The notes beneath the pieces are model-generated. The model saw nothing but the letters and a program-made list of their open reading frames with translations, searched no databases and was not told the origin of the DNA. Positions 1,975-39,483 of a DNA stretch of 64,000 nt are shown in pieces. The DNA comes from Verrucomicrobiota bacterium (GTDB lineage: Bacteria; Verrucomicrobiota; Verrucomicrobiia; Limisphaerales; UBA9464), in contig JAFLEF010000023.1 of NCBI GenBank assembly GCA_017309115.1, positions 23,502 through 87,501 of the forward strand, given 5' to 3'. The position numbers and the translations under genes are program-made. The stretch's first letter is position 1; every line of letters starts with the position of its first letter.

Positions 1975-3183
1975 ATGCAGCCCAGTATTTTCAGAATGGT
2001 CATCACGGCCGTGGCACTCCTGGCGGGGTGTGGGGTGCGTGCGTGGGGAAATCAGGATCTTCTTCCCTTAATCTTCCGAACCGGCGCGGAGGTCACCCTG
2101 CAACAGGGAGGAATTTCCTTCTCCTATTCGTCAGGATTGGTTCCAGAACGGCTGGAGTTCGCGTTTGGCTTTGCCTCCACAGACGTGGAAGAGGGTGGGT
2201 TCTTTCTGGATTCCGCGAGTTTGCTGCTGCGGCCGTCGGGAGCGGACAGCACGGTGCTGGTGACGGCGGATGTCAGCGGGACGGAATGGGTTCCGCCGAG
2301 TGATCTGGGACCGCCGCCGACGCTGACGCTGGCGATTCAGCCCCGGACATTCCCGGAGGAATGGGGCTCCGGCTACACCACCCGGGTGGCGTACTCGGTG
2401 AGTCTGGAACTGCCCGAAGCCTTCCGGCGTCAGTCGCTGTCGCTCACCCTGCAACTGTTCGACAATGGCGATCGGCGGAACTCCCTCGCCTTCCTGGACG
2501 ACGTGTTGGCAACCCCGGAACCCCCGTTCATCGAACTGCGTTCTTCCGCGTTCCCGTTGGGTCCGTTCGCCCGGGAATGGCTGGCCCGGCATGATCCGGT
2601 CTTGCGCACCTTTCGGATCGATCGGCCGGATCGCGCCCGGTTTTTCTGCCTGCGGTCGGATGCGGCGGTCACCCTGAAGATGCTCTCCCCGGGTCCCGAC
2701 GTGTGTCAGTTCAGTTACACCTTTGCGAGTCCAACGGTGGAACTTTTGGGAGGGGCTTCCGTAGCGGGTCCGTTCGATCTGGTGACGAACGCGGTGATGG
2801 ATCTCACCAACCGGGTGATTCGGGTGCCGGCGAATCAGGCGCAGCGTTACTTCCGGCTGAACGGCAACGTGCGGGCGCGGTTGGTGACGCCGGAATTGGA
2901 AGGGGAAACGTTGGTGTTCCGCTTCGTTTACTCCCCGCCGGTCTTTGCCCTGCAATCCAGCGTGGATGTCTGCGGCCCGTACGCGGACGAGCCGTTGACC
3001 CAATGGGATCCGACGCGGCAGCTCCTGACCGTCCCTCTGGAGGCCGCGCGGTTTTACCGAATTCGTTCCGCCGGCCAGCCGGAGCTGGAAGCCCTGCCGG
3101 TCTACTGGGAGGGCCAATCCCTGGTGATTCCATACCGACCGGTGGCGGCGGGGTTGAACTGGTCGCTGAGCTTGGAACCATGA
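1975..3183 (+). CDS. Lipoprotein of unknown function; its C-terminal half is three tandem ~40-45-aa '...FYR' modules. First gene of the giant operon
   Basis: Signal peptide with lipobox MVITAVALLAGC. Three tandem modules end in RFFCLRS (about 2527-2660), RYFRLNG (2737-2866) and RFYRIRS (2947-3069). The TGA stop at 3181-3183 overlaps the ATG of the next gene at 3180-3182. Confidence 0.75.
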   Translation: MQPSIFRMVITAVALLAGCGVRAWGNQDLLPLIFRTGAEVTLQQGGISFSYSSGLVPERLEFAFGFASTDVEEGGFFLDSASLLLRPSGADSTVLVTADVSGTEWVPPSDLGPPPTLTLAIQPRTFPEEWGSGYTTRVAYSVSLELPEAFRRQSLSLTLQLFDNGDRRNSLAFLDDVLATPEPPFIELRSSAFPLGPFAREWLARHDPVLRTFRIDRPDRARFFCLRSDAAVTLKMLSPGPDVCQFSYTFASPTVELLGGASVAGPFDLVTNAVMDLTNRVIRVPANQAQRYFRLNGNVRARLVTPELEGETLVFRFVYSPPVFALQSSVDVCGPYADEPLTQWDPTRQLLTVPLEAARFYRIRSAGQPELEALPVYWEGQSLVIPYRPVAAGLNWSLSLEP

Positions 3184-6100
3184 GCCCACTTGTTTCCCAA
3201 CTTGGCCGATTCCTTCGGTGTTTCCTTGCGCGAACCTGCTGGTGGCTGGGCTGGCTGCTGGCGGTAGGCGCCGGGGCTCTAACGGCTCGGGCCCAGGAAC
3301 GAACCTTCACGCTTGACGGTGGGAAGGTCGTGCTGACCGACGTTTCGGACCGGGCCACGGTGCTGGTGCGGTCGCTGCGGTATCTGCCCGAACGGCGGGT
3401 CTGGAATGCCAGTCTGCTGGTTCGCAACGCCGGTTCCATCCCGCTCCGCGGACCGATTGTGGTGGTCGCGGAATCGTGGACCGGAACCTCCGGGCCTCGG
3501 CAGACCGACACTTCGGCGGGCAGCGGGGAGCCGGAGTTTTGGCGGGTTAGTCCGGGGCCTTTGGGGACCAACGAGTTGACCGTTCCTCGATTGATCGTCT
3601 TGGGCGCGGAGGGAACGGTGGCGCCTCAGGTTCGCTGGAAGGTCTATGCGGGTCAGGCGCCAGTGGAATCTCCAGGGCTGGGATTCACTCGAACGCTGAC
3701 CGCGACGGGATTGCCGCTGGGCGAGGTCACCGTCACTCAACTCCAGCCTTCAGTTGGACCCGGGCGAGTGACGGAGGCTGAGAGTGGTGTGGTTTCTGTG
3801 AACGGTCCCCCGGGATCCTATCGGCTCCGGTTTGATCGGCCTGGATTCCTCTCGTCCTTTGCCGTGGCGCAACTTTCGGCGGGCGGATTGACGCTGATCC
3901 CCAATCCCCGGCTGACCCCGCGGGATCTGACATCCGTGGAGTTGGCGCCGGGGGCGGTGCTGGCCTCGGCGGACGGGGTGGTGGAACTCACGGTAGATCC
4001 TGGCGCGCCGCCTCCGAATGGACAGCGCGCGACCCTGACCGTGTTCCCGGAGCAGGCGCTGCCGGCTCCGTTGCCGGTGGGCTGGAGTCCGCTGGCGGCC
4101 TGGTCCTGGGAACCCGAGCGGGCCACTGCGGCGCGGGCGCGGGTCCGGCTGGGAGTCCGCGGCGTGGCGGCGGGAACGGTAGTTCCGGTGACGCTGAAGT
4201 CGGACGGGCGGTGGTTGCTCCGGGGTGAAGCCTTGACGGTGGATTCGGCGGGCGTGGTGGTTCTGACCCTGAACGAAAGCGAGCGGGTCGCGGTGGTGGT
4301 GCCGGATGCGGGCGGGTCGTTGCCCGCGGCGGGAACGGAGTTGCCGGCGGGATCAACGCCAGTGCCGACGCCGGATCAGTTGGTGGTGACCAGTCGGGTG
4401 GAACCTCCGGTGGTGGCGGCGAGCACCAACGCCACGTTGGTGACTGCCCAGGCGGAACTTACGGTGAGCAACCGATCCGGTGCGTTGCCCAGCGGAGGCG
4501 TGTTGCGGTTGGAGATTTCGGAACAGTACGAATTGACGGACGGAAGTCGGCGGACCCCACCTCGGTATGAAACCTTCGTTCGGGTGTTCCGTCGTCCGGA
4601 CGCCACGAATGCAGCCGTGGGGTTCGCGACGTTTCCGCTCCGGCCCCTACTGCTGTTCCCGGGCGACCAACTGCAGAGCGCGACCGTGACGGTGGAGGTC
4701 CTCGCTCCGGCGGACTTTGCGGGCGGACGTCTTGTTCCTGGCGGCAGTTACACGAACGGCGGATTTCGGGTCGTGAGTCAGTTGGGAGACTTGGCTGAGC
4801 CTCAGGCGATCCTTCTGGAACCGTTGGGATTGGCTGGCGAAGCCGTTCCTGGGCAACGCGTGCTAACCGACCTGGAATTGACCGGCGGCATTCCCCGAGC
4901 GGCGTTTGAACTGCACCTGGGTGGGGTCACTCCGGGCCGGCGGCTGGGACTTCAGGTCGACCGGGAACTTCCCGACGGCGAATACGTGCTGCTGCAACTG
5001 CGTTCTCGAGGAACGGAGTTGGAACTTCAGCCCCGCGAACGGCTGATCCGGCGCAACGGCGAATTTCAATCGGCCGAAGGTTCGGGCTCGCCGGCGCCGG
5101 GCCTTGCGGGCTCGGGTCAGTTTGTGGTGGTGCAGGTTCCCGGGCCGTTGGAATGGGTGACGGGTCAGGTCGAGGACGCCGGAGCCAGTCGGACGAATCT
5201 GCCGGTCACCGTGACGGGCCAACCCTGGGTGGTGTTCACGGATGCGACCGGTCGGTTTCTGACCCTGGCTCCAGCGGGTTCGGTGGAGGTGGCGGTTCGC
5301 GATTCCGGTTCGGCCCGCAGCGCGTTTCGAACTCTAGCGGTGGTGGCGGGTGTGGCCCCGGCTCCGGTGACGCTGGCCTTGGCTTTGGAAGCGCCGCGGG
5401 TGCTGACGGCGTTTCCGGCGGACGGCGCGGTGGGCGTGGATCGCCTGGTGGCGCCCAAGCTAACGCTGAGCCGTCCGTTGCGGGCCTCGTCGGTGAACGC
5501 GGGAACCGTGGTGCTCCGGGGGACCAATGGCGCCGTGATTCCGGCGCGGATCACCTTGGAGTCCGGGAATACGGTTCTGCGGGTCTACCCTGCGGAACCC
5601 CTCGCCGGCGAAACGCAGTTCACCCTGGAGTTGGCGGCGAGCATTGCGGACGACGCTGGAACGGGCCTGACGGGTCGCCGGCAGTTCTCGTTCGTCACGG
5701 TCAGCACGCCTTGGGTCCGTCCGCCGGGAGCGCAGTTGTATTCGTGGGTGCCGACCAACGGAGTGGCGCGGATCGTCGGGACCGAAGGTCTGGCGCCGCC
5801 GGGATTCCCGGTGATCTTCGTCAACGACACCACTGGGGAAACCGCTACCAGCACGGCGGGTCGGGGAGGGGAGTTCGAGCAAACGATCCCGGCTTGGTTG
5901 GAAGATCGGTTGCGGCTGGTGTTCGTAAATGCGGATGGCACCCGCAGTGAACTGGCGGTGGGTCAGCAGCGGTTCCCGGATGGCAGCGTGGCGTTCTACA
6001 GCGAAGGCGGGACCCTGACGGCGACCAATCTGGCGTCGGAATTACGAGAACTTCGGCTGGAAGTTCCGCCGGGCGCAGTGTCCGGCCGAACCCGGTTCAG

Positions 6101-9100
6101 ACTCGAGCCCCGACCGCTTCTGGACGCCGAAGTCCTCACATCCAACACCCCGCCGGCAGACGCGCAGGCGCTGGGCTTCTTCCGCCTGGAGATTGAGGGC
6201 GATCCGCTGCGGGAACCGGTGCGACTGATCTTCAAGGACCTCGACTTGGATCGGCTCCAACCGCCCGCGGGCCGAACGGTGGACGACATTCCCCTGGTGG
6301 TGGGGGCGCCGACGTGGGTGGACGAAGCGATTGGCGGAACGCCCACCCGAACGTTGGGTTATCGGTATCTGGGACAAGTGGTGCCGCTCACCAACGCGGT
6401 GGCTGCTTCAGGTCGGGTGGGCCGCCAGAGCATTCTGGCGGGAGGCGTGCTGACCTTCGCCGGGAGCGGCAATCTGTCAGCAATGCTGTTCGGCCCGATC
6501 ATCTGGTCCAAGATGGAGGTGGCCGGCAAGGTGTTCTCGGCCGATCTCAGCCAGGGACCGGTGCCGGTGGCGGGCAGCGAAGTGCCCTTGGCCGGAGCAG
6601 TGGTGCGGGGGCGGAGTCGGTCGAATCTGAGTTCGATTCCGTTCTCCCTCCAGCCGGGCGAGATCTACACGCTGAGCGATGCCAATGGCTTTTTCGCATT
6701 TCTGGCGCCGGCGAATTATCAGTCCGGGGCAATCACGCCGTTGTTACAGGGCTACTCGTTGAACGCGACGCATCCGGCGTTCCCGGGGCAGATGGCCGGC
6801 AGTCATGGACGGGCGAGCGTGTATGATCCGTCGCATCCGTTTGGCGGTGGCACCATTCTCTTCGATCGCACCCGACCTGCCGACACCCAGCCCCCGTCGA
6901 TCTTTGCCTCGCACGTTCCGGGATTGCCGGCCGTGTCGGAGCGGATTCGATTCACGGCCACGGCGAGTGATCCGGGCGGGATCGCGAGTCTGGTGGCCCT
7001 GACGGATTCGGTGAATCCGTTCAACGCGGTGGTGAACCTTCGATCGGCGGGTTCGGGGATTTGGGAACTGACGTCCGATCGCCCGGCCAAGGTCGTGCTT
7101 CGGGTGGAAGCGGTGGATGGTTATGGCAACCGGGCGACACGCACGCATGCGATTCTGGTTGGTCAGCCGCCTTCGGCGCCACCGACGGTGAATGATCCTG
7201 CGGGTCCGTTGGTGGTGGGCGCTGAACCGGATGCCGGCGCCCTCGGGGTCAGTCCGGCGACCGTGATTCAGCTGCAGTTCAGCGAGGAGTTGGATGACGG
7301 CATTCGGACCAATGCGGCCTTGTTCCTCACGTTGTCGCCGTCGGCCTGGACGCTCACCAGCGAGTTCGGCCGGAGTCGGCGCGACGTGGTGGTGCGGGTG
7401 CCGGGATTGCGGCCGGACACGGATTACACGCTGACCGTGCAGGGTGTTCGCGATTTGAGCGGTCAGGTGCTCGATCAAAATCCGGCGACGAATTCGCCGG
7501 CCGCCGAACCGTTCGTTTTGAATTTCCGCACCGCTCCGGAGCTGAGCGAAGTGCTGCCAGGAATCACGGAAGGCGGCGGGGCGTTGATTCGGGGAGCGTA
7601 TGCGTTTGTGTTGGATCGGCAGAGGCAGTCGCCCCAGTTGGTGGTGTTTGATATCTCCGTTCCTTCGCGGCCCGTCCGGGTCTACAGCCGTCCGTTGCCG
7701 GGTCCGCCCCGGGCCATGGTGTTGATTCCGGACTATGACTTTGCGACGTCGTTCGTGGACCTCCACCAACCGGATCCGAATCAGCCCGTGGGAATTCGTC
7801 GGGGCAACTTGTTGGCGGTGGCGGGCCAGTTGAGTGGCGCGACCACCAGTTATCTGCGCGTGCTGGATCTCGGGGGTTTGCCCGACGATGTGCCGACTCT
7901 CGCGGGGAATGTGTTGAGTATCGATCCGACGTCCCTGATCACCCGGTTGGATTGGTCGCCACCGTATCTGTTGGCGGTGGAAAACAGCAGCGAGGCGCCT
8001 TCGCTGCATGTGCTGAATTTGCAGGCGGTAATTCTGGGTCAGGCATTGACGGACTTCTCTCGGCAGTTTGCCCGGGCCTATTTACCCGCGCCGCCGGTGA
8101 TCTATCCCGAGCGCGCCGTGCCTGCGGTGGATGCCAATCAGGACGGGGACTTCGTCGATCCGGGCGACTCGTTGCCGGTGCCGGGACTCGACACGGTGGG
8201 CTCGGTGGCGGGCGAGGTGTCGTTGCTGACCCTGATGCCGAACCGCCGAGGAGCCAACGGAGGCGAACTGGTTCTGGTGCGGTCGCCCCGGTTCGTGACT
8301 GACGCGTTTATCGACGGGCCGGCAGGTTACTTGGGAGCGTTGACCACACCGGGGGCGGACACTGTGGTGGAGTTCACCTCGGCGCCGGTGTCGACCAATC
8401 GGGTGGATCATTCCACCGAATTTCGATCGTTCCTGGTCGGTCAGAATCTGTCAGAGACAGCGTCAGTTTCCTTTCCGGAGTTTTATCCGAAACGGGCCGT
8501 GCCGGTGATGGTGTTCGGTCGGCGGTTGGTCCTGGTGAATCTGTTGAGTCTGGACAACCAGACCAATCGGATCTGCGTTCTCGATACGACCCAAGCGGAA
8601 TCACCGGTGAAGTTGGCGGATGTGGATCTGCCGCAGTCCGAGTTCGGCGTGTTGCAGGGCGCGGTGCTCGATGAACGCGGGCGCATCGTGCTTTCGACAG
8701 TGACGACGAACGGGGAGAATTTTGTCCTCCTGGATCCGACGCGCTTCCTGGATCCGGTGGTGCCGGGGGCGATTCATCCGGCGGTGCTCGGCGTGATCCC
8801 GGGCGCGGGTGGCGGAGTGACGTCGTTCGGAGTGATTCCGGGCGGCACAAGTGTGGCGAGCTTGCGCGGGGTAAATGTGGTGGCGCAGACCGCCCCGGTG
8901 ATTCGCTTGGTCCAGGCTACCACCAATTCCCTGTCCGCGTTTGACGAGCCGGATCTGACGAATCGGTTGGCGGAACTGCGTTCCCTGGCGGACGTCGAGT
9001 TCCTGCCGGTGGCGCGTCATGGCACCAATATTTCCGATCTGCTCCCGGCCAATCCCGCTCGACATTTCCATCTGTGGGTGGAGGCGCCGGGTGGGGCTGG

Positions 9101-12100
9101 TCGGGAATTGGAGGTGACGGCGCTGAGTTTGGATGCCGCGGGTTTTGTGGTCGTGCGCACCAATGGCGCAGCGCCACCTGCGGTGCTGCGGGCGGTTCCC
9201 TTGCGTCGGCTGACGTCCGATCCCCGTTCGCCGGCGTTCAACACGTTCTTGTCCCGTCCACTGGCCTTGCTGGCGGAGGATCTTCCCCTCACCGAGGCCA
9301 ATGCTGTTCAAGCGGCGTTGCGACGCCACTTGCTCTTTGCCGGAACCCGACTGCGGGTGGGGTTCAGCGAAGAACTGTTCGCGAATCCCGCCCTGAGTGA
9401 CTTCGCCGGAGCGGGCCGGATCACGGTGGCGGTACCGACGAACACCTTGCCGCCGCGGCTGGGCGTGGCGCTCGGTCGGCCGGTGCTGGACTTGCAGCCG
9501 CGACTGGAAGCGGACGATACGTTGGTGATCCGGACGGTGGTGGATGCCGTGAACACCAATGCGTGTCCGGGATCGGCCTATCTGAGCTTCGGCCACACCG
9601 TGAACTGCCGGATTTCAATGTTCGTGGACGGTCAGCCCGCGCGCAATTTGTACGATGATCAGGGCCGGTTCTACGCGATCTTCACCAACGTTCCGTCCGC
9701 CGCCGGATTCCATCAGATCCTACTGGATGCCGCGGCCGTAGGGGACCCGGGACGGCACACGTTTGAACTGGTGGGAACGCAGTTCGACGGTTCTGAACCG
9801 CAAGTGACCTTGTCGGAATCCGGCGTTGTGGAGCATGAAGTGGAGATCCACCACAACTTCCCGGTTGGCCACACGATCATTCAGGGTGTGGACCTGTGGG
9901 ACGGCCATCTCACCCACAGCCGGCAGGACGTCGCGGTTCCCGGTCGCAAGCTCGCCCTCGATTTTTCGCGAACCTATTCCAATAGCGGCAACAGCTCCGC
10001 GGGACCGCTCGGCGGCGGTTGGACGCACAATTATCACATCCGGCTCGAGCAGCGTTGTGGCGTCTGGACGGTCATTGGCGGCGAAGGGACGGGCAACGCC
10101 TTCACACAACCCCAACCCGATGCCGCGAAGCTGGGCCGTTATGCCCGCTTCCTGCCGGCGGCGCGGGGGCAGTATGAATTTTTCCAACCGCAGGTGGGTT
10201 ATCACTCCGTGCTGGTGCGGGATACGGATCGGACTTCGGAGGCCTGGTTCTTCACGAAGTCGGCCGTGCGTTATCACTTTGTCAGCGACGGCTCCAGCAG
10301 CACGCCTTCCGCCACGGTGTATCGGCTGCGGTCCATCCGGGAGCCGAACGGCAATGAACTCCGCCTGAACTATCAGGACAACGACTCCAATCCGGCGACC
10401 CTCGATACGGTGACGGAGTATGAACCAACGGGCGTGCCGAAGCGCGGGTTCCGGTTCCAGTACCGCGTCATTGCCGGCGAAGACCGCTTGGTGAACCTCC
10501 GCGGATTCAATCAACAGGGCAGTCCTGATCTGCTCGGACTGGAGATTCGTTACGCCTATGACGAGTGGGGCAATCTGACGAACGTCACGCGGTGGGGCGG
10601 TTCCCCGGCGGAATCACGGACGGACTCCTACACGTACACTCCGGGATTTGAAGGTCCGACGACGCACAATCTGCTGACGTGGACCGATCCGAACGGTGCG
10701 GTCACGCAGTACGAGTACTTCCCGGCCGGTGCGGCGGGATACTATGCGATGAGCAGCCTGCTCGAGGGCGCTCCCCCGCACGAAACCGTTCGCAGCATTA
10801 CTCGTCTGGGAACCGCGCGGCCCGGCTTTGCGGCGACGGATGATTCTGTGACCCGGTTCGCCTACGACTTTGCCGGAGGAACCCGGCGGGTGTCGGATCC
10901 TCGGACAGGACTGACCGTTCCTGACACCGTGTACACGCTCAACGCGTACGGTGCGACGGTGCGGATTGAGGCGCCGCTGGGTCAGACCACCCTGCTGGAA
11001 TGGGCGACCGATCATCGGAATGGCGCGGTTCGCAACGAGGCGGGTCAGGCGGTGAACGACGTCGTGCTGACCCGGAAGGTGGACGCCGAGGGACAGGAAG
11101 TCCGCTACGAGTATCACGATGGTCGGGGCAACGTAACGCGGGAGATCACCACGGTGGCGCCGGGCAAACGGGCGGTCTTCGATTCCCAGGGCCGGACAGT
11201 GACGGTGTCCGAGCTCGTCCAGACGTATCATCCGGTTTTCAACTTTCCGGAAACCGTGGTGGATGCCGAAGGGCACTCCAGTCGGTTCGAGTTGGACCCG
11301 GCCACGGGGAATCTGCTGCGCAGCACCGATGGCGTCGGCAGTGTCACCGTCTTCGAGTACTACCCGAACGGCGACGTACAAATTCGACGCGACCCGCGCG
11401 GATTTGAAACGCGCTTTGTTCGGTATGATCCGTATGGCAATGCCGAGCTGATCGTCGACGCCGAGGGAAACGAGATCAGCAACCAATACGATGAACGCAG
11501 CCGGCTTCGTGAGACCCGCGATACGTTCACGCATCATCGCACGTTTGCCTACGACGCCTTGGATCGATTGGTGGCGGAGACCCAGGAGAACGACTTGAGC
11601 GGTTTGGCCACCGGACCCGGCAGTCGGACGGGCACCGGTTATTTGCCGGGAGGCCAAGTGCAGGTTCAGACCAACGCCCTTGGATTGGTCAGCCGCACCG
11701 AATACGATGCCCTGAATCGCCGGGTCCGGATGACCCAGGTGGCGGTTCCGCAAGGGGATGGCAGCCGGGTCGATTACGTTCAGACCTGGCAGTATGACGT
11801 CGCGGGCAACGTGGTGGCTGAAGTGGATTTCCGGAATGTCCGGCGGGAACATCGGTACGATGCGTTGAACCGGCGGGATCGAACGACGCTTTCCGGACCG
11901 CACGGGGGTCCGTTCAACGCGGATGGCGTTCTGTCCCGAATCACTTTCGACCGGATCAACAACGTTCTTGAGGAGATTAATCATCAGGGGTTGACCAATC
12001 GCTACGCCTACGACGGATTGCATCGGTTGGCGGAACAGACCCTTCCGTTGCCGGGAGCCGTCCTCCGAACCGATCGGGACCGTTTGGGAAATGTCCTCGT

Positions 12101-19700: not shown

Positions 19701-22700
19701 TGTTGAAGGTGTATCAGGCGAATCGCTTTCCGCGGGATCAGTTGGAGGCGCTGGCGGCTTCGCCCGACACGCGCGCGGCTTTGCTGGAGGCGTTCAATGT
19801 CGGCGAGTTCGGTCAGGCGGTGGTGGCGGTGGAGGGGTTGGATCGCGCGGTGTACCAGGACTTAGTTCCGCAGGGAGGCGCGCGGGATCAGAGCGAGCTC
19901 TCCGTGGTCCTGCGGTTTCGCGGTCGGGGAACGGTGACTGGCATCGTGCGCGACGAGCGCGGGGCGCCGTTGTCGGGCGCGGCGGTGAATCTGTTTCCGG
20001 ACACGGATTCCCGCGAGAAGGGCCGGGGAATCCTGAGCGGGCCGGATGGTTCCTTCCGGTTTGACGGTGTGCCGCTGGGTCGCTTTTCGATTGAAGCGTC
20101 CACCGGGGATCAGCGGCTGCGGGTTGTGGATGGTCGCCTAGAGACCTTGGGGCAAACGGTGGATCTGGAGTTGGTTGTGCCGGACACGCGACTCGCGTTT
20201 GGATCGCTGAACGGACAGGTCCTGGAGGCCGACGGGACGCCGCATGCCCAGGCGCGGGTGTACGTGGTGCAGGACCTCAATGCTGGATCTCCGCGGGGCA
20301 TTCTCGCGGAGGCGATCACGGACGAGGACGGCTACTGGCGTGCGGATCGGGTGTTGGCGACCAACCGCGTGGGGGTTGTCGCGCTCTCCCGCGATTCTCA
20401 GCGCAAAGCGGTGCGGGCAGGGGTTCAGCTGAATGTGGACGGCGAAGGCTTCCTGACCCTGGAACTGGAGAGCCTGGCCACGGTTCGCGGAATCGTTCGC
20501 TACGCTGATGGCCAACCCGCGGCGCGGGCGAAGGTCGGCGGAGGCGACGCCGTGGTGCGCACGGATGCGCGGGGCGAGTTTCTGCTGACGGGAGTTCCCG
20601 CGGGTCTGCGTTCCGTGGTGGCGGGTCTGGATGCGCCGGATTCGCGCGATGGCGTCACGCGCCTGACGGGAACCACGCTTACCGTAACGGCGGGTCAGGA
20701 CAACTTCGTCGATCTTCGGCTGCCCGCCCGAGGCAAGATTACGGGCCGCATTCTCAATGTGGCGGGCGAGCCCGTGCCGAACATCCGTGTGGCGATTCCA
20801 ATGGCCGACGGCTTCGCCTGGGTCAACGCCAACACCCGGGGCGAATTCGTCTTCGATGCCTGGCCCATCGGACGCTATATCGTGAGCGCTCCCTCGCCGC
20901 CGGTGAAGGTGAAGCCGGACGAACTAGCGGAGCGTGCCCTGAGTGCGCTTCAGGGAAGTGACGGCCGGAATATGTCCGCCGAGGCCGCCGCCCTGGTCGG
21001 GGAACTGGCGAACATTTATGCGCAGGGCACCATGGGCCGATTCAGTAGTCCGAACTTCGTGCCCACCACCTGGGGCTTCAACGAAGTGGAGCTGTTGAAC
21101 GACGGAGGCACGGCGTTTGTGGAGGTTCAGATGTTGCCCGGCGCGTCGGTCAGCGGAACCGTGGTGAACTCCCAGGGCGTGCCGATTGGCGCGAACGTCA
21201 AGGTGTTCGCCTTTGGCCCGAGCAAGACGGGCGGTCCTCTAGTCGAGGAGCGCGGGGAGATGGTCAGCGATCCGGGTACCGGCGAATTCCGCTTCACCGG
21301 ATTTCTCACCGGGCCGATCCGGCTGGAAGCGACGTCGCCGCTGCTGGTGGGTCGCGCGCAGTATGAAGATTACCTCGAGCCGGAATCTCCCATCCGGACT
21401 GGAGTCACGCTGACGTTCCCGGCCCAGGCGGCGACGACCGGCCGACTGATGGGGCAAGTGACTTCCGCGGAAGGAACGCCGGTCCCGGACGCGGAGGTGG
21501 CGATCAGTTTTTCCTCCGACTACGCGATTCGCACCGACACTAACGGCGTCTTCGACACACAGATTCGCTTGCCGGTCGCCTACTATTTCGTGACGGCGAA
21601 GGCGGACGGCAACGTGGGCCAGACGACGGTTCAATTGGTGGGAGGTATCACTAATTTTGCCGCGGTTCGGTTACTGGGCCGAGGTGATCTGGTGGTGGAG
21701 GTGCAGAATCTGGATGGAACCCCGGCGACGGGGGCGGAGGTGAAAGTCGTCGGCTGGGATTTTCCGCGGGAAGAATACTCGTTTGAGAGCGTCGATGGTT
21801 TCGGTCGGCGGACGTTGATGGGATTGGCCGAAGGTGAGTATGTGCTGGAGGCTAAGCAACTGACCGGCACTTTGGTGGAGTTCGTACGCGGAGCAGTGAA
21901 GGTGAGTCGGGGTCAGGAGTCCCGGGTTCAACTGCGGTTTGGTCCAACGGGTTCGGTGCGGGGACAGTTTGTGGAACGACTCACGCAGGTGCCGATCTCT
22001 GGTGCGCAGGTGTGGTTGCGGAATCCTGCCGGCTTGGCGGTGGCCAGTGCTCCGACCGGGGCGGATGGTCGGTTCGAACTGACGTCGTTGCCGTTGGCAA
22101 CGTATCAGCTGGTCTCGCGAAATCCGGTGAACGGCCGGCTTGGTTCGGCGACGGTGGCGGTAACTCCCGAGAATTCTGCGCCATCGGTGGTGTTGGTGGA
22201 ACAGGCCCTTGGGGAAGTACGGGGTATCGTGAGAGATTCGTCGGGAACCAATCCGGCGGTGGGAGTCCGGGTCACGTTGAGTCCTACCGATCGGCTGTTT
22301 GAAAGCCGGCAGGTGACGACTGGGCCGGACGGGGAGTTTCAGTTTCCGGGCGTTCCATTGGGCTCCTTTGAGGTTCAGGCCGTCCTGGGGCTGGCGGGTC
22401 CGCAATCCCGGGCGCAGGCCCTGCTCGCCTCCGAGACCGAACCTTTGATTCTCGATTTGGCCTTACCGCTGACGGGTAGTCTCGACATCACAGTTCTGCG
22501 TCCGGACGGGGTTTCACCCGCCACCAACGCCTCCGTGGTGCTGCGGTTGTTTGACGGGCCCCGACGATTTGATACGGACGCGCAGGGCCGCGTGCGGTTT
22601 GGGGACGTGCCTCTGGGCAACTGGACGGTGCGGGCGAATTCCGAGGTGCCAGGCGAAACCCGGAGTCAGGCGGTTAGGGATGTTGCCCTCAGTTTGGAAC

Positions 22701-25700
22701 GGCGGCAGATCCCGCTCACTCTGGTGTTGCCTGGAGTGGGTCGGGTGCAGGGCGAGGTGCGCAATAGCGACAACTCAATTCCCACATCCGCGGTGCGCCT
22801 GGATGTGCGGTTCCTGACAGTCGGGGGTGGCGGCGATACGGTGACGGTGCTGACGGATTCCTCGGGTCGGTTCGCGGTGCCGGATGCCCGGCTCGGGGAC
22901 TTCAGTGTGACCGCTTCCCTGAACGCGCTGGCGGCAACTGCCGGCGGGCGGTTGGACGCGGATGGCGACGTGGAGTCGGTGACCTTGCGACTTGCCGCCA
23001 ACGGGGTGGTGAGCGGACGATTGCTCAGCGCCACCGGAGCCGAACTGCGTGGGGCGGACATTTTGCTGACGTTCCCGTCCCAGACCGCCTTCCCCGGGCG
23101 GGTGCTAGTGCGGACCGATGCTCAAGCGGAGTTTCGCGCCGAAGGCGTTCCGATTGGTGTTCCCGTGGTGGTGACGGCGAATGTCGCTTCGCTGAACGGA
23201 CTCCTGCGCCGGACGGTGCGCTTGACGCAGGACGGTCAGGTGCTGGCGTTGGGCGATCTGCGGCTTGATGAGGAACCGCCCACCGTGGTGCAGATTCTGC
23301 CGCCGGACGGTTCGATGGAGTTTCTGGAAACGGAATCCGTGCGGGTGGATTTCAGTGAGGCGCTGGATCCGGACAGCGTGACCCCGGAGGCCCTTTATCT
23401 CGTGCAAGGCACCAACCGGGTGGCGAGCGATGTGACGCTGGAGAGTTTGGCGACGGGATCGCGGGTTGTGTTGCAACCAGACGAACCCCTGGCCAGCGCG
23501 ACGCAGTACTCTGTGGTTGTTCTCGGCGGGAATCGGGTGGGACCCAACGGCCAGTTGTTGCGGACGGGCGTGAAGGACGGCGTGGATCGGTTGCTGGTGG
23601 AGACCGTCACGTCCTCCTTCACCACTCGGGACTTCCTTCCGCCCGGCCTTCTGTCGGCGTTCCCGGCGGATGAGGCCGTCGAGATTGATCCTCAAGCGGT
23701 GGTTCGGTTGGAGTTCGATGAAGCGGTTCGCACGAACGGCTATCAGGTGGTGGTGCGCGGGCCGGCGGGTCCGATTCCGGGTGAGTCGCAGGTCAGTGCC
23801 AGTCGGCGGTTGGTGGTGTTCAGTCCCGCGGTGGAGTTGCCGGTCAACGCCCGGTTCACCGTGGAGGTCAGCGGAGTTCGCGATGCTGCGGGGAATGTAA
23901 CCCCCAACTTCACCAACCGCTTCACCACGCTCGACACGTTGGCGCCGGCGGTGGCGAATTTGCGACTGGCGGCGGGTCAGCGCGCGGTGGCGGGAGCCAC
24001 GGTGTTGGTTGAGGCGGTGTTGGATTCGACCGAAACGAATGCCGCGGTCCGCTTCAAGCTCGATGGCGTGGAGGTCGGCGTGGCCCTGATCGGACCGGTG
24101 TTCCGCTGGCCGGTGCGGCTGCCCGGTTCCGGGACGGCGGTGGTTTCCGCCACGGGTCTGGATTCCCGCGGCAACTCCGGCAGCGAAGCCGAGTTGATCC
24201 TGCCCTTGGTCGCCAACGATGCGCCCTCGGTGGCTTTGCGGCGCGGTCCGCTGGAATCAGGTCCGGTGCGTACCGGACGATCCTTCAGCGTGGTGGTCGA
24301 AGCGACCGATGATGCCCGTGTGGCGGGAACCGTGCTGACTCTGACGGGAGCCCTGACCAATCGCTGGGAACTGGGCGGTGGGACCAACACCGTGGTGGTG
24401 ACCCTGCCGGCGGAAGCGGTGTCCGGGCCGGCATTTGAGTTTCGCGCCACGGCCTTCGATGAACTCGGGGCGCGTTCGACGGAAGCGCTTCTCGCGGTTC
24501 CCACCACGGATGCAACGCTCCCGGGACTCGTCTGGAACGGGCCGCCGGCGGGAACCCGGTTGGATCCGCGGAATCCGTTCCCGTTGGACTTGGAAGTTCG
24601 GGACAACAGCGGGGCAGTGAACGTGCAGTCCACGCTGAGGTATCGAAACGGAGTTCTCACGAATCTGACCGCATCCGTCGTGCTCGTGCCCAATGTTTCC
24701 CAGTCGGTGCGACTGGAGGCGAATCTGGCGGGGGCGGAGGACGGCGGAACGTTGGAGGTGGATCTGACGGTGACGGATGCCGCCGGAAACGTCGCGCGCC
24801 AATCGCTCAGCTATTCGGTGCGGGGTGTGCGTGGTCCCAAGCTGGTGCAGATTCGCAACTCGGCCGGCACGTTGCTGCCAACGACCAACGTCGTTTCACC
24901 GTGGATCTCGTTTTTGATTTTCGACTTCGACCGGTCACTGGCGCCGACGAATTTGGTGGATCAGTTGGTCCTGACCAATGACCTGGGCGAACCCATCGCG
25001 TTCACGCCGGTCCTGACGGCGAATACGATCCAGTGTCAGCTCAATGGAGCTTCCCTGCCGCCCGGATCGGAAGTGACGGCCATTCTGCGACCCGGACTGA
25101 CCGATGCCAGTGGCAATGAAACGCAACTCGCCGACGGCCGAGCGTTTCCGCCCGAGGGAGTCAGCGTGACGTTCCCCGTGGCGCGGTTCTTGGGTTTGAA
25201 ACCGGATTCCGGCCGAAGGGTGGTTCCTGGGCAGACGCTGGTGTTGGACTTGACCCAGGATCGCGCTCTGGATCTGGTTGAAGTGCGCCTGAATGGTGAA
25301 CGGATGCCGGTGCGAACCGTGAATGGTGAGGTTCACCGGTATCCAGCACGGTTGTCGGAGCAGGCGACCAACGCTCAGGTCACGGTGATCACGGTCCAAC
25401 CGGGCCGGCCGCCGCGACTGCTGGCGCAAGCGGATTATGTGGTCGTGCCGCGAGACGGGGATTCCGATGGGGACGGGCTGCCCAATGGTTGGGAGGCGGA
25501 CCGTTCTTTCGTGAACGATGCGATTCGTTTCGATCCCGCGGATCCAGCGGACGCCCGGGCCAACTTTGACTCGGACGCCTTGGATAATCTGACGGAGTTC
25601 CAGTTGGGCACCGATCCCTTCCGGGTGGACACCGATGGTGACGGTCTCTGGGACCATCAGGAGTCGCTGGAACCGAATGGCTGTCCGAGTCCGCTGGTGG

Positions 25701-28700
25701 CCGACAGCGATGGCGATGGTACCAATGACCGGTTTGATTTTGATGCGTGTGATCCCCAGGAGAGTCTGACGGTGAGTCCCCTGGCGCTCACCGTTTCGGA
25801 GGGAACCGCCACGACCAACGCCCTGACCCTGCGTCTGGTGAATCTGGGTTCCCCGTCCCTCCGGTTCGACCCGGCGTTCCCGCGACCAGACTGGGCCCAG
25901 TTGCTCGACTCCAGTTCGCCCAACACCAACGTGTCCACCTGGCGACTGCGCCTGGGTCCTTCCTTCAGTGACGCCGGAGATTACTCCCTGCGCTTGCGGG
26001 CGACGGCGTCCCGGGCTTTGGGACAGGTGGAGTTTCCGGTGGAAGTGTTGGTTCGGGTGCAGAATGTGACCAACGTTCCGGTGACCCGCTGGCGTTCACC
26101 GGTCAGTGGTCGGTGGCAGGATGCCTCCGCGTGGAGCGACGGGGTTCCGGATGTGGGACGTCAGGCCGTCATTGACGTTCCCGGGACCTACACCGTCTCG
26201 GTGGATGTCGGCGGGCTGGCGTCGGGATTGCAGGTGGGCGGACCGGGCGCAGCGGTGACGCTGAATCTGGTGTCGGGGACCCTAACGCTGAACGACGACG
26301 CCACGATTCATCCCGGTTCGGTGCTGCGGAGTCAGAATGGTGGCTTGGACGGGCAGGGTGATCTTCGCGTGGCGGGTCGAATGGAGTGGTCGACCAGCGC
26401 GTTGGCCGGATCCGGACGCCTCCTGATTGAACCTGGTGGCGAGATGGAGACGCGGTCGGGCACGCTGTCGCTCTTCCGTTCGTTGGAAAATGCGGGAACG
26501 CTGCGGTTGGCGGACGGACTCACCCTGTGGCTGGAAGGATCCACCCTGACGAATCGCGGCGATCTGTTGCTGGAGAACTCGGGTCAGATTTGGTTCCGCA
26601 GTTCGTTGAACCGCGAGCAGGTGGTGAATGAAGGACGGATGCAGAAGACCGGGGCCGGCGAGTTCACTCTGAACAGCCTGCCATTCCATCAGCACGGGCG
26701 TCTGGAAGTGATGGCCGGAACACTGACGAGCACGGGCGGGGGCGTGCACAGCACCACCAATGTCCTGCCGGCGGGCGCGACGTTGCGGTTGGGCGGACGG
26801 AATCCGGCCAGTCCATTGGTGTGGACTCCGGAGAGTGCGTGGTCGGGGGCGGGACGTTTCGAGTTCGTGGGGTCTAGCAATCTGGTGCTCGGCTCGTTTC
26901 AGCCCACTGGTCTGGTGGAGTTCGCGGCCACCTCCACCCGGCTGGCGCGTTCGATCGTTCCTCCCTTGGCAGCCACGTTCAGCTTTGGGCTAACGCACTT
27001 CGCACAGGATCAGGTGCTGACCAATAGCGTCGCCTCGGCGTCGAGCACGATCCTGACGGACGGCGAGTTGAGCGTGGTGGGCCGCTTGCAGTCGGCGTCA
27101 GGAACGTTTGGGGGAACCGGTCGGTTGCGGATTGCGCCCGGGGGCAGTTGGGTCGTGAACGGGGATTCGATTGTGCAGTTGTCCTGTCAGGTGGAAAACG
27201 AGGGAGCGGTCGAAATTCTGGACGGCGGCGATCTGCGGCTGAATGGCGTGACGCTCGTCAATCGCGGGGAGTTCACCACCCGAGGTGAGGCGACGATCTG
27301 GTGGCAGACGGTCTTCGCGGAAAACCGATTCGAGAACGAGGGACGGTTCCGTCAGTTGGGCGGCGGACAGGTCTCCTTCCGCCTGGTTCCCTTCCATCAT
27401 CGCGGCGAATTAGAACTCACCGGAAGCCTGTTCCTGGACGAGGGGGGCGCCAACCACAGTCGCCTCGAAGTGCCAGCCGGAGTGACGCTCGTCCTGGGGG
27501 ATTCGATGGAATACGGGGCAGGTTCGTTTCTGGGGGGGGCGGGAACGATTCGGTTCGATCAGGGCAATCACATCTTGTCGGGCGGGTTTGAGCCGACGGG
27601 TTCGGTGATCTGGAATGGCGGAACGGTAACGGTGAACGAGACCCCAGCGTCCCCGTATGCGGCTTCCTTCAACTCCGGTCGGTCCGTTTTCGGCGCTCCA
27701 CAGCGGCTGCGCAGTGCCTCCTTTGCCGGCGCGACGGTCGAGGGAGCCGATCTCGAGGTGGAGGGAGATCTCCAATTGCGGTCCGGGGCTCTGCTGGGGC
27801 CGGGTCGGGTGACCACGACCACCAATTCCACGGTGCGCGTGGAGAGTTCGGTGCGCACGACCCTTTCCACGCTCGGGCGGACGCTCCTGACGCGGGGTCC
27901 GGTATTGTGTGCCACCAACGCCTGGGTGCGGTTTCAAGGAGGACGCTGGGAGAACGAAAGTCGCTTTGAAGTGCCGGCGGGCCTCCGTCTGGACTCCTTC
28001 GGGGGAACCAACGGATTTGTGAATCGGGGGGTGTTCGAGCAAAGCGGATCCAACACAGTGGAGATCACGGGCGTGGCGGTGGAGAACACCGGACCCTGGC
28101 TGCTGACGGGCGGTTCGCTGACCCTGGCCGGCGGCGGCACCAACTCGGTTCCCTGGAACATTCCGGCAGGAATGCCGTTGTCGCTCGGGGGACGTTGGCT
28201 CCAGTTGGCTCCGCTCACCGCCCGTGGTCCGGTTCAGTTCACGGCGGGAGTTCAGCAGTGGAACGCGCCCTTCCAAAATGTCGGAAGTCTGCGCGTCGAT
28301 TCCGGTGCCGAAGTCTTCTGGACCGCGGGACTGACCAACGACGGCTCGGTGACGGTGCTGGGCACGATGGTCGCCGGAACGCCGTCGTTGGTTCGGCAGA
28401 TGATCCTGCAGCAAGGCGAGCTCCGGGCCGAGGCGCCGTTGACGATTACCGAAGAGTTTCGGTGGCTCTCCGGGACCCTTGCCGGAGCGGGCGGAGTTCA
28501 TTTGGCCGCCACCGGTTTGGGCGAAGTCAGTGGCAACGGACTGGCCAGCCTTCGCGGTCTGTTCTCCAGCGCGGGCACCGTTACCCTCACCAACACCGCG
28601 TCGGTCCAGTTCCGTAATGGCACTTGGAGGAATGAACCCTCCGGCACGGTGATCCTGCGCAGTTCTGGAAGTTTCCTGGGATTTGGTTCGACCACCAATC

Positions 28701-31923: not shown

Positions 31924-31956
31924 GTAGGTTGGCAGATGAAAGGTGGGACGTGAGAA

Positions 31957-33489
31957 TCAGAGGCTGGTTGCGCGGGGCCAAAGTCGGTTAAGGGCGCGAT
32001 TGGCCCAGGTCCCGACGTAAAAGCCGTTGAGAGCATGGACGTAGAGGCGACGGCCCAGGGGCCAGTTCCGGCTTCTCCACAGCAGCGCCTGGAACAGGAA
32101 GAGGCCGATGAATATCGCGCCGACCAAGCTGGAGACCCAGGGGCTGGGATCCCAAGCGGGCGTTGGCGGCACCAAGGCGGTCGCGGCTGCGTGCAGGCCC
32201 AGGCTGATCAGAACCAGCACGGCCGCAAACAGGACACCCTTGGTCAGCGATCGGATTCCCGCGTCGGAAGAACCGAGACGCGCCAATCCGTAGGCCAGGG
32301 CCAGGGACAAGATCAGGAGGAACACGATCGAGGTTTCACTCCCGCCGGGGGCAAACTTCGCCCAAAGCGTTGCGCACCCGGAAACCAGGATCGCCCCCGC
32401 GAGAACTCCAAAGCTCAGGGTGGGTACGCTTAGTCGGATTGCCGCCGGAGAACGCGCCCCGATGGTCGATCCGGCGTGGAGGAAGGCGTGAGCCTTGTAA
32501 AGGGAGTGCGCCACGATGTGCAGCAACGCCAGGCCGAACGCTCCCAGTCCGCATTGCAGGAGCATGAAGCCCATTTGGGCGATGGTGGAGTAGGCCAGCG
32601 CCCGTTTCACCGTGGGCTGGGCGAGCATGACCGTGGCCCCAAAGGCGGCGGTGATCGCGGCCATGATCGAGAGGACGGCGAGTCCGCTAGCCGAGTGCGC
32701 CAAGAGCGGGTTCAGGCGGATCAGCAGAAATCCACCGGCATTGATGATCCCGGCGTGCATGAAAGCGGATACGGGAGTGGGAGTTTCCATGGTGTCCGGC
32801 AGCCAGCTGTGGAAGGGGAATAGCGCCGACTTCAGGGACGCACAGAGCACAAGTAAGACTCCGACGCTGGGGAGCGGTTGGTTGTCGCCGGCCGCGACCA
32901 ACCGAAACAGGGACTCCAATTCCCAGGTTCCGTAGTGGCGATAGATCAGGATAACCGCGCCCAGCAGACACAGGTCACCGAGCCGGCTGACGACAAACTT
33001 CTTTCGGGCCGCAAAAACGGCTCCTGGCCGCTCGGGATAGAACAGGAGCAATTGGTGGAGACACAGACTCGTAGCAATCCAGGCCAGGAGGATCAGCAGT
33101 AGATTGCCGGAAAGTACCAAGGTCAGCACCGCGCTCAGGGTCAGACCCATCCAACCAAAGAACTGATTCTGTCTTGGGTCACCTGCGAGGTAGTGAAGGG
33201 AAAAACGCAGTATTGCCGATCCCAGTGAGGTCACCAGTAGGACCATGACGAGGCTGATGGCATCCAGTCGGAGGGAGATCGCGGAGAGCCCGGAATCTGG
33301 CATCAGCCGGACCCAAGCGGTTCCATAAACCAAGACGGCGGCCGTGGTGGCGAAAGCGATGACGGCGGCAGCGAGCGTGGCTGCCCAAACCAGACGTGGG
33401 GCGCGGGAGGTTCCGAGCAGAGCGAGGAGGCCGGCGATCAGCGGGAGGAGAGGCAGGGCGGCGGCCAGACCGAGAAGCAGTAAACTCAT
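31957..33489 (-). CDS. dabB: DabB (NuoL/ND5-like proton-conducting membrane transporter, PF00361 family)
   Basis: 510-aa polytopic protein with NuoL/Mrp-type segments (SALFPFHSWLPDTMETPTPVSAFMHAGIINAGGFLLIRL; AYSTIAQMGFMLLQCGLGAFGLALLHIVAHSLYKAHAFL). It sits 33 nt upstream of DUF2309, which is the canonical dabBA pairing. Confidence 0.8.
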   Translation of the reverse strand: MSLLLLGLAAALPLLPLIAGLLALLGTSRAPRLVWAATLAAAVIAFATTAAVLVYGTAWVRLMPDSGLSAISLRLDAISLVMVLLVTSLGSAILRFSLHYLAGDPRQNQFFGWMGLTLSAVLTLVLSGNLLLILLAWIATSLCLHQLLLFYPERPGAVFAARKKFVVSRLGDLCLLGAVILIYRHYGTWELESLFRLVAAGDNQPLPSVGVLLVLCASLKSALFPFHSWLPDTMETPTPVSAFMHAGIINAGGFLLIRLNPLLAHSASGLAVLSIMAAITAAFGATVMLAQPTVKRALAYSTIAQMGFMLLQCGLGAFGLALLHIVAHSLYKAHAFLHAGSTIGARSPAAIRLSVPTLSFGVLAGAILVSGCATLWAKFAPGGSETSIVFLLILSLALAYGLARLGSSDAGIRSLTKGVLFAAVLVLISLGLHAAATALVPPTPAWDPSPWVSSLVGAIFIGLFLFQALLWRSRNWPLGRRLYVHALNGFYVGTWANRALNRLWPRATSL

Positions 33490-36428: not shown

Positions 36429-36490
36429 GGAAAGCGGTTGGGTCGTAAGGGAACCATGGGGAGCCAAGGGAACCGAGCGAAAAGCCGGGC

Positions 36491-38814: not shown

Positions 38815-39483
38815 GTCGGAATCCTGCGTCCCGATAAGCGGGCCGAGCCGCGCGAAGTCAAGTTTGGACCGGTCTGGAGATGCAGGCGCCCCCGGGCCCG
38901 GCACCCGGCACACCAACCGCGGCCAGAACGGCGAACAAAAATATTTGGAAGAAATCGGTGACCGATGCCGGGATTCTCCGAATCAGAGGTCAGAATGTCT
39001 CTGCATCTCTCGTCTCCGGCGCCGCGGTTCGCGACATCAACGAGCCGTGTTGCTCGGAGAAGTGGGAACGGGAGAAAGCGGGAGGGATTTGTCGGAACCG
39101 GGTGGAAGTTCGGTTCTCCCAGGAACCAGGTAGCCAATATACCGGTTCACCGGCATTCCCAGATCTCGCATGCAGGGGGCATTCTGAAAGGCGTGCTCGG
39201 CTGCAGTAGGGAGCGCACTTGTTCTCGGACGCAACTGGAGATGGCCACGGCTCAGGTCCAACCCAGGCCGGCGAATAGTGGGAGGTTACCCAGACCCCGT
39301 TCGTCGGCCTTATCTGAGCCGAAGTCTGTCTTCCGGAAGCTTACCCTCCCGATTGGGGTGGGGCGGCGGGTCGCGGGTGTGAAGGATAGAGACACACTCC
39401 GGCCCGCCGTTTGGTCCCACCCGAAATGGCTCCAGTTCGCTTTCTGAACTCTCACCCTCATCCGTTTCTCGTCCTCTGCTCTC

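Follow-up and report, generated by a model that had tools for sequence, protein, structure and literature searches.

Capsules built of Rhs/YD repeats have been solved in three delivery contexts: type VI secretion system (T6SS) effectors, the Tc (ABC) toxins, and the teneurins with the bacterial teneurin-like proteins (TLPs). In addition, WapA of Bacillus subtilis, a wall-associated Rhs toxin, combines a Sec signal with a cell-surface region at the N-terminus, Rhs repeats and, at the C-terminus, a polymorphic toxin. The protein described here has comparable elements. Verrucomicrobiota is an abundant phylum of soil, freshwater and gut, in which toxin delivery has been little studied. Here we analyze a locus of a Verrucomicrobiota bacterium (GTDB lineage Bacteria; Verrucomicrobiota; Verrucomicrobiia; Limisphaerales; UBA9464) from assembly GCA_017309115.1, contig JAFLEF010000023.1, positions 23,502 to 87,501 of the forward strand. 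This whole stretch of 64,000 nucleotides (nt) is referred to as the window, and positions are those of the window. It holds two adjacent giant genes, which are called P1 and P2. We consider that P1 is probably a Sec-exported, cell-surface or released polymorphic toxin with an Rhs/YD shell, representing an undescribed family of Verrucomicrobiota. Beyond the shared superfamily of YD shells, it resembles teneurins and Tc toxins in layout only.

The capsules described so far provide the scale for this comparison. The shell of RhsA makes three turns with 76 strands and holds a cargo of ~15 kDa; Tc cocoons make four turns and hold one of ~30 kDa (PMC8765631); the shell of teneurin-2 has 78 strands (PMC5851990). 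Catalysis in Rhs, Tc and TLP proteins has been ascribed to an Arg and two Asp residues (PMC13018210, PMC8765631), and the canonical autoprotease motif is DPxG-X18-DPxG, with an Asp spacing of 22 (PMC13018210). The 2026 paper on TLPs has already described bacterial proteins that are free-standing relatives of the teneurin architecture (PMC13018210).

P1 is a single gene at 3180-16724 on the forward strand, within an open reading frame (ORF) spanning 2703-16724, and encodes 4,514 amino acids (aa), or 487 kDa. Its probable start is the ATG at 3180. The encoded domains follow in the order signal peptide, stalk of immunoglobulin (Ig)-like and transthyretin (TTR)-like domains, propeller, two small domains, DUF6531 plug, YD array, Rhs core and cargo. 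P1 thus has YD repeats, the core motif, a DUF6531 plug and a variable C-terminus, four sequence hallmarks of the Rhs core family. The adjacent immunity gene of Rhs polymorphic toxins is missing; such a gene is common and not obligatory, and Tc toxins are without one. The N-terminus, MSPLVSQLGRFLRCFLARTCWWLGWLLAVGAGALTARA followed by QE, has a charged n-region, a hydrophobic core and an ARA/QE site (read by eye), and ten family members have equivalent hydrophobic N-termini. Judged by its sequence, it looks like a Sec-type signal peptide.

Pfam RHS_repeat (PF05593) matches the shell at E 2.9e-86, with 28 significant stretches over three pieces, and the NCBIfam model YD_repeat_2x / TIGR01643 matches P1 at E 8e-46. 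From the start of the plug (nt 9888; Pfam match at nt 9888-10091) to the end of the TIGR03696 core match (nt 15353), P1 spans 1,823 aa. Two AlphaFold2 models cover most of this region. Model 2 (nt 11754-15353, the last 1,200 aa through the core; mean predicted local distance difference test score, pLDDT, 69) shows an unbroken array of 93 beta-strands in 1,120 residues, consisting of hairpins only. Model 1 (nt 7500-11099, built with a 35-sequence family alignment) adds 21 strands in the first 310 residues after the plug. With ~18 strands extrapolated at the same density for the 218 unmodelled residues, the total is ~132. The P1 shell is therefore ~1.5-1.7 times the T6SS Rhs cocoon and comparable in amount with the two-chain Tc cocoon. 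The length and the estimated strand number are compatible with a four-turn Tc-type cocoon. An inserted domain, for example a Tc-like propeller, was considered as the source of the extra ~220 aa in the shells of the P1 subclade and was rejected: the excess consists of many insertions of 10-28 aa, and the models show hairpins only. In the family consensus (alignment A4), ~130 aa are inserted in most members, but not in the P1 subclade, after the last YD hairpins (YDxWGQ) and ahead of the Rhs core (FxGQYFDYDxGL).

By sequence and by fold E-value, the P1 shell is nearest to T6SS-type Rhs cocoons. In sequence searches of the PDB, T6SS Rhs proteins match the shell (E 2e-29 to 1e-17), whereas Tc proteins match only the Rhs core of ~100 aa (E 6.5e-5). 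Foldseek ranks the shell in the same way, with best E-values of 2.6e-44 for T6SS Rhs proteins, 8e-36 for the TLP structure 9ifo, 3e-30 for TcdB2-TccC3 and 4e-30 for teneurins. The query-normalised template modelling (TM) scores, 0.46 for 8qja (0.52 to target) and 0.44-0.48 for TcB-TcC, do not discriminate. P1 gave no Pfam match to TEN_YD-shell (PF25023), teneurin NHL, FN-plug, TcdB mid or SpvB, and the pieces of its shell gave no teneurin or Tc match even at E<=1.

The Rhs core carries the residues expected of an aspartyl autoprotease. When the last 319 aa of the shell are aligned with RhsP (8h8a) and RhsA (7q97), the Arg of ARYYD, the AQDP motif and PLRYVDPTGY, which has the PxxxxDPxG pattern, are conserved, with DPTGY at 15342-15356. 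The two Asp residues are 27 residues apart in P1, against 22 in the canonical motif, with a short insertion. The motif is kept in the family consensus. As the Arg and two-Asp motif is intact and family-wide, cleavage of P1 after DPTGY is expected, a prediction made from its sequence.

Ahead of the plug, the region ~7530-8915 is, as modelled, a real beta-propeller. Residues 11-472 of model 1 are all-beta, with 7-8 four-strand groups and pLDDT mostly 85-97. Residues 174-238 form an inserted helix and loop (pLDDT ~46-92 per 10-residue block, <50 at 194-203) with an invariant D-x-N-x-D-G-D-x-V-D motif, seen in P1 as the calcium-site-like loop DANQDGDFVD at ~8124-8160. Foldseek against the PDB matched 7- and 8-bladed propellers, namely Sec12 (target-normalised TM score 0.66), mLST8 (0.54), the clathrin N-terminal domain (0.50) and Cdc4 (0.46); integrin alpha was also matched. 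In P1 itself, Pfam LVIVD (PF08309) gives one marginal unit below cut-off (E 0.09, ~nt 7587-7676), and it matches four of six family members, with a best E of 4.5e-6. The propeller motifs are kept across the family. An alpha/beta domain (model residues 487-640) and a beta-sandwich (669-781), both with pLDDT 80-94, follow the propeller; from about residue 796, the plug and first YD hairpins are modelled with lower confidence, the DUF6531 domain at pLDDT 40-70. The pre-shell region and the stalk have no PDB sequence match, and a word-index homology search with the pre-shell region was empty, the index apparently not returning proteins of ~4,000 aa.

Could P1 then be a true bacterial TLP and so belong, as a divergent member, to the FN-plug/NHL/YD-shell superfold ancestral to teneurins? 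When the model of propeller plus shell start is searched with Foldseek, teneurins come top (E 2.5e-11), followed by TLP 9ifo (1.8e-10), and P1, like teneurins and TLPs (PMC13018210), has a TTR-like domain upstream. Precomputed PF25023 matches also exist on relatives of P1, all of them weak or faint except that on P0003. However, the teneurin TM scores in that search are only 0.07-0.16, the shell of P1 gives none of the teneurin Pfam matches, the plug is DUF6531 and not an FN-plug, and an LVIVD-like propeller of 7-8 blades precedes it. Moreover, the TLP survey found six phyla, Verrucomicrobiota not being listed, and TLPs have C-terminal domains averaging ~15 kDa with an immunity gene directly downstream (PMC13018210). 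We regard this explanation as hardly credible.

An earlier note, made from the letters of this DNA, had proposed that P1 may be a relative of the teneurin or TcB-TcC architecture. Several of its observations hold: a YD region of ~1,825 aa, beyond the size of classic Rhs cores; LVIVD-like blades forming a propeller at 7560-8800; Ig-like domains before the shell, found by Pfam as two Big_5 matches; and export of the Sec type, on the reading of the N-terminus given above. The aspartyl autoprotease pair near DPTGY, for which the note had asked for a check, was found intact by TIGR03696 and by alignment, with its longer spacing. The proposed layout is right as a loose linear order of TTR-like domain, propeller, shell and C-terminal domain with a Tc-sized shell, but the propeller topology differs from that of both systems. 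The relationship itself was not supported, as no Tc or teneurin Pfam match was found and T6SS Rhs proteins come first by sequence and by Foldseek.

The relatives of P1 were collected by an exhaustive HMMER search with the pre-shell module over 1.84 billion cluster representatives. At least 175 family representatives were found at E<=1e-3, 63 of them at E<1e-30. Most members are 4,000-4,500 aa long, with the matched module at residues ~1,450-2,100. Segment-wise phmmer shows that the stalk (segments N1 and N2, in its entirety), propeller module, plug and core are kept in the giants, and that the cargo is not. The N-terminal 2,100 aa including the propeller, as well as P2, are 31-46% identical across classes of Verrucomicrobiota. 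DUF6531 occurs in 89 of 150 representatives (jackhmmer), and the alpha/beta domain at the end of the "pre1" module is kept in ~100 (query positions to ~638). The beta-sandwich "pre2" is limited to the P1 subclade, its phmmer matches being P0002-P0005 and a few fragments. This subclade, made up of P0002 (99% identical) and P0003-P0005 (44-46%), stands out by the extra beta-sandwich, by shells of 1,823-1,844 aa, the longest in the family, and by the largest cargos (437-456 aa). Plug and core were both detected in 63 representatives; in these, the median plug-to-core span is 1,604 aa (range 1,374-1,844) and the median post-core domain 283 aa (range 185-456). The idea that shell length scales with cargo length inside the family was rejected (Spearman -0.03).

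Relatives with a name or location come from Verrucomicrobiae, Limisphaerales (OZ260084.1, complete, 7.9 Mb), Verrucomicrobiales, Haloferula, Puniceicoccaceae and Opitutia, and all relatives with a reliable taxon label are Verrucomicrobiota. A 45%-identical propeller module also lies on a 3.7-kb contig of a metagenome-assembled genome labelled Cyanophyceae (L005, JBIKWS010000537.1); this contig is probably a mis-binned contaminant, because all other matches come from Verrucomicrobiota. Database names are generic, such as "RHS repeat-associated protein" and "Ig-like domain-containing protein". No description of the family was found in the literature, the giant-gene preprint 10.1101/2023.11.21.568195 dealing with other proteins. 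In a distant member of 5,141 aa (P0067), cadherin-like and Big_9 repeats replace the Ig/TTR stalk. After its gene come a 153-aa ORF and a transposase, then an orphan Rhs fragment of 1,342 aa that bears a WHH/colicin-DNase toxin, and the reverse transcriptase of a group II intron.

The cargo varies as in polymorphic toxins. P0003 carries a Peptidase_C39-like domain and P0094 a PT-HINT pretoxin domain, and five others have no match. In P1, the cargo has a charged, helical part at its N-terminus, an amphipathic stretch rich in Gly and, at its C-terminus, a unique domain of ~200 aa; it has no match in Pfam, NCBIfam or PDB. Its only two database relatives are P0001, a 97%-identical metagenome fragment of 549 aa, and P0004, matched via residues 136-250. 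A pore-forming role, suggested by the Gly-rich stretch, is unsupported: the maximal 19-residue hydropathy window is 0.96, which is not of transmembrane grade. The features of the cargo also bear on the proposal that P1 is a non-toxic giant adhesin or scaffold, in which the YD shell is structural, as in metazoan teneurins, and the C-terminus is no released effector. Such a protein would fit a cargo unlike any toxin, the missing immunity gene, and an Ig/TTR-like stalk and giant P2 that resemble surface-fibre proteins common in bacteria of the Planctomycetes-Verrucomicrobia-Chlamydiae (PVC) group. Against it stand the polymorphic C-termini, including PT-HINT and papain-like C39 domains, which are a polymorphic-toxin signature, and the intact, family-wide Arg and two-Asp motif, which uncleaved teneurins have lost (PMC13018210). 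We therefore consider an adhesin very improbable.

P2 is the second conserved element of the locus. It contains CarboxypepD_reg (TTR-like) domains (E 2.5e-64, at least six stretches), Big_5 and TSP3-type modules; the earlier note had rightly described a coupled neighbor rich in such domains. A P2 homolog lies directly 3' of the P1 homolog in the window and in five of five other loci (L001, L002, L003, L015 and L016), with -4 to +73 nt between P1 stop and P2 start. The P2 homolog is 92% identical in L001 and 37-44% identical over ~3,000 aa in the other four. The C-terminal ~1,000 aa of P2 (26600-29560, +) are Gly/Thr/Ser/Asn-rich and beta-repeat-like and end in a small domain with a ...FYRVVSVGE tail; this part has no Pfam, NCBIfam or PDB match. 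Two candidate assignments were dropped. P2 as a lipoprotein (lipobox LTAC) is unsupported, as the Cys is replaced by Phe (LTAF) in the 92%-identical relative, and paralogy of P1 and P2, or with other large proteins of the window, is not indicated by BLAST, in which only Big_5 domains are in common. Upstream, the 402-aa ORF is 30% identical over 358 aa to a 413-aa gene directly 5' of the P1 homolog in Limisphaerales OZ260084.1 (L002); it is not conserved in L003 or L015 and has no Pfam or NCBIfam match. It is probably the first gene of the P1 operon. Its repeated modules end in R-F/Y-F/Y-R-L/I, like the last ~80 aa of P2.

The conserved partner invites comparison with multi-component toxins. 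P1 could be a fused BC-type cocoon with a propeller that docks on P2 and is gated by it, P2 being functionally analogous to TcA in receptor binding and translocation. The shell is Tc-sized, as are family cargos of 30-50 kDa (PMC8765631). The partner is giant and translationally coupled, and is present in all five other loci; an immunity gene is missing as in insecticidal Tc toxins; and the query-normalised TM score of TcdB2-TccC3 (0.44-0.48) equals that of the best T6SS Rhs protein (0.46). But in P2, neither a TcA-type domain nor a PDB sequence match was found, and no helical or hydrophobic segment is predicted besides the signal peptide; P2 resembles a chain of beta-sandwiches, so that a TcA-like role finds no sequence support in Pfam, NCBIfam or PDB. 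P1, for its part, is without SpvB and TcdB mid domains, its propeller is placed outside the shell, ahead of an Rhs-type plug and one or two domains away from it, and both the sequence and the Foldseek E-values put T6SS Rhs proteins well above Tc. A Tc-like toxin is thus an unlikely explanation.

No immunity-sized ORF lies between P1 and P2 in the window or in L001, L002, L003, L015 and L016, and none follows P2 in the window, where the next genes are DabA/DabB, on the opposite strand or convergent. The lack of an immunity-sized gene near P1 and P2 suggests that the target of P1 is not a sibling cell. It also bears on a simpler proposal, namely that P1 is an ordinary, if larger, WapA-like contact-dependent interbacterial Rhs toxin whose immunity gene is elsewhere or lost, the propeller and P2 being generic adhesion decoration. 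P1 does agree with such toxins in broad class (signal of the Sec type, region for surface display, YD shell, DPxG motif and polymorphic C-terminus), its shell is nearest to antibacterial T6SS Rhs effectors, and the distant member P0067 has small ORFs and an orphan toxin cassette downstream. On the other hand, the immunity-sized ORF is missing after P1 in all six loci, the shell is ~1.5-1.7 times the length of a T6SS Rhs cocoon, and the identity of the N-terminal 2,100 aa and of P2 across classes argues for a dedicated machine and not for shuffled decoration. We hold this proposal to be doubtful. P1 is thus probably not the ordinary WapA-like protein that the earlier note had named as a finding that would refute it.

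Taking P1 as an exported Rhs/YD-shell toxin, a mechanism can be sketched by analogy with solved structures. The YD array would fold into a closed cocoon, with the DUF6531 plug closing its N-terminal end and the Rhs core the opposite one, as in Rhs, Tc and TLP structures. The core would then cleave after DPTGY, leaving the 49-kDa cargo free and largely unfolded inside, and a Tc-sized shell would let the family carry cargos of 20-50 kDa. The propeller may serve to bind a receptor, a glycan or a partner, in the manner of the exposed NHL domain that teneurins have; such a binding module is more likely than a Tc-type gate, because an Rhs-type plug is present and lies one or two domains apart. The stalk may keep the capsule away from the cell. 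P2, encoded in the same translationally coupled operon, may anchor, export or help to deliver P1.

Several points weigh against P1 being such a toxin. The cargo resembles nothing known and shows no sign of toxicity in Pfam, NCBIfam or PDB searches, and the missing adjacent immunity gene is atypical for polymorphic toxins. Shell closure and cargo encapsulation would follow from homology; the models cover two fragments of 1,200 residues, in which the plug and core have low confidence (pLDDT below 50-70). The partnership of P1 and P2 is proposed from conserved gene order. A protein of 487 kDa would also have to cross the outer membrane of a diderm. In addition, with shell and cargo lengths uncorrelated, a bigger shell for a bigger cargo holds only for the family against other Rhs classes, and the P0067 locus has a classical toxin-cassette exchange arrangement, unlike the core family.

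A bolder version, to which we give a small chance, is that P1 and P2, as two giant proteins, make up a new kind of machine with which diderm Verrucomicrobiota deliver toxins independently of T6SS, Tc and contact-dependent inhibition (CDI) systems. The propeller and the alpha/beta domain would dock the single-chain, Tc-sized capsule on P2 as a TTR-repeat fibre, and P2 would bring it through the outer membrane, or beyond it, and present it to a target that is not kin and is possibly eukaryotic. Such a machine would explain the missing immunity genes and the cargos of 20-50 kDa. The coordinates of P1, P2 and the upstream ORF are collected in Table 1.

Table 1. Features of the P1-P2 locus, with positions in the window
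Feature	Position	Strand	Basis or remark
Upstream 402-aa ORF, lipoprotein-like N-terminus (LLAGC)	1975..3183	+	Stop overlaps P1 start as ATGA
Signal peptide and start codon of P1	3180..3290	+	Residues 1-37, predicted cleavage ARA/QE
P1 stalk, beta-sandwich domains, ~1,410 aa	3291..7529	+	Pfam; BLAST vs P2 Big_5; family conservation
CarboxypepD_reg/TTR-like domain of P1	~5157-5378	+	Pfam, under cut-off, E 3e-6 on segment
Big_5 Ig-like domains of P1	~5388-5699 and ~7185-7530	+	Pfam, two matches, E 8.7e-22
LVIVD-like beta-propeller of P1, 7-8 blades	7530..8915	+	AlphaFold2; Foldseek; Pfam LVIVD in relatives
Alpha/beta domain, ~150 aa, end of "pre1" module	8958..9419	+	AlphaFold2, pLDDT 80-94; no Pfam or PDB match
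Beta-sandwich domain "pre2"	9504..9842	+	AlphaFold2, all-beta, pLDDT 80-94
DUF6531 (PF20148), Rhs-type N-terminal plug	9885..10094	+	Pfam, E 6e-12; 1.6e-12 on shell piece
YD/RHS-repeat array (shell), ~1,670 aa, continuous	10095..15113	+	RHS_repeat; AlphaFold2 hairpins
Rhs-associated core	15114..15356	+	TIGR03696, E 7e-19; ARYYD...AQDP...PLRYVDPTGY
C-terminal cargo, 455-456 aa, ~49 kDa, pI 5.5	15357..16721	+	After DPTGY
P2, 4,279 aa, signal peptide	16721..29560	+	Pfam; ATGA overlap with P1 stop

The window also contains genes outside this operon. DabA (E 3.5e-248; 29533-33489, -) and a DabB-like protein (Proton_antipo_M; 33568-34482, +) form an inorganic-carbon transporter pair with a divergent LysR regulator. 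A cluster at 35265-38916 (-) encodes a P450-like protein, an ADP-ribosylglycohydrolase and an APH-family kinase. At 39484-44541 (+) lies a secreted-looking subtilase of 1,685 aa, in which Peptidase_S8 is combined with a fervidolysin-like prodomain and with repeats of the PD40 propeller and bacterial TSP3 types. It is followed at 44630-47350 (+) by a protein of 906 aa that contains Laminin_G_3, DUF6851 and a helical domain resembling vanadium chloroperoxidase. Further along are a hybrid histidine kinase of 1,296 aa that has a Y_Y_Y domain (54129-58019, -) and a PSCyt2/PSD1 (DUF1549/DUF1553) protein typical of PVC bacteria (62109-63947, +).

The P1 family is of interest in several respects. Its shell, made of one chain, equals the two-chain Tc cocoon in length, and its cargos go up to 49 kDa. 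The family is widespread in Verrucomicrobiota and offers a natural test of shell size against cargo capacity. It also bears on whether YD shells acquired propellers repeatedly and independently, a question that matters for the origin of teneurins.

How P1 stands among the known systems can be summarized as follows. The mosquito proteins SGS1/SGS4 (8FJP, 9ON3) are, like P1, giant Rhs/YD proteins with a YD shell; they are of bacterial origin and exceed 3,000 aa. They match P1 in the core by sequence (E 5e-4 to 2e-3) and in the shell by fold (E 1.7e-20), but the likeness is much weaker, with TM scores of 0.26 to query and 0.14 to target. Unlike WapA, P1 has a diderm host, a larger, unrelated N-terminal region with a propeller, and a longer shell; it has no WapI-like immunity gene, a conserved giant partner gene occupying that place.

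The T6SS Rhs effectors compared are RhsA of P. protegens (7Q97), RhsP (8H8A), Tse5 (8CP6), the S. bongori/Advenella proteins (8QJA-D) and Tse15 (8UY4). P1 shares with them the DUF6531 plug, the cocoon-type YD array, the DPxG aspartyl autoprotease core and the polymorphic C-terminus. Unlike them, it is without an adjacent immunity gene and without PAAR, VgrG-binding or prePAAR regions, a Sec-type signal standing in their place. Pfam and NCBIfam detect no PAAR, VgrG or T6SS signatures in P1, and no T6SS genes are among the annotated ORFs of the window. P1 also places ~2,200 aa of stalk, propeller and extra domains before the plug. Its plug-to-core span is 1,823 aa against ~1,050 aa, with ~130 strands against 76 and a cargo of 49 kDa against ~15 kDa.

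With the Tc BC cocoons (TcdB2-TccC3, 4O9X/6H6E; YenB-YenC2, 4IGL), P1 has in common a comparable amount of shell, a large cargo, the same aspartyl protease motif and an associated propeller, and it likewise lies beside a very large partner gene with no immunity gene. Unlike them, it is one polypeptide and not two, and lacks SpvB and TcdB mid; its propeller is LVIVD-like and N-terminal to an Rhs-type plug, whereas the TcB propeller is inserted in the shell as a gate. P2, unlike TcA, shows no TcA features.

The bacterial TLP compared is BiTLP (9IFO), together with the metazoan teneurins 6FB3 and 6FAY. Like these, P1 is of the Sec-dependent type, with BIG/TTR-like N-terminal domains and a propeller followed by a single-chain YD shell; TLPs also have a cleaved, encapsulated C-terminal toxin, as is predicted for P1. 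Unlike them, P1 is without FN-plug and 6-bladed NHL. In TLPs and teneurins, the NHL propeller lies between the FN-plug and the shell, whereas in P1 the propeller precedes the DUF6531 plug and is one or two domains away from it. The P1 shell is ~1.7 times the TLP/teneurin length, and its cargo is ~3 times the TLP average of ~15 kDa. P1 is not a TLP; it is another way of joining a propeller and a YD shell. Its family would add a fourth arrangement to the solved contexts, one that is Sec-exported, has a propeller before an Rhs-type plug, and is accompanied by a second giant protein instead of an immunity gene.

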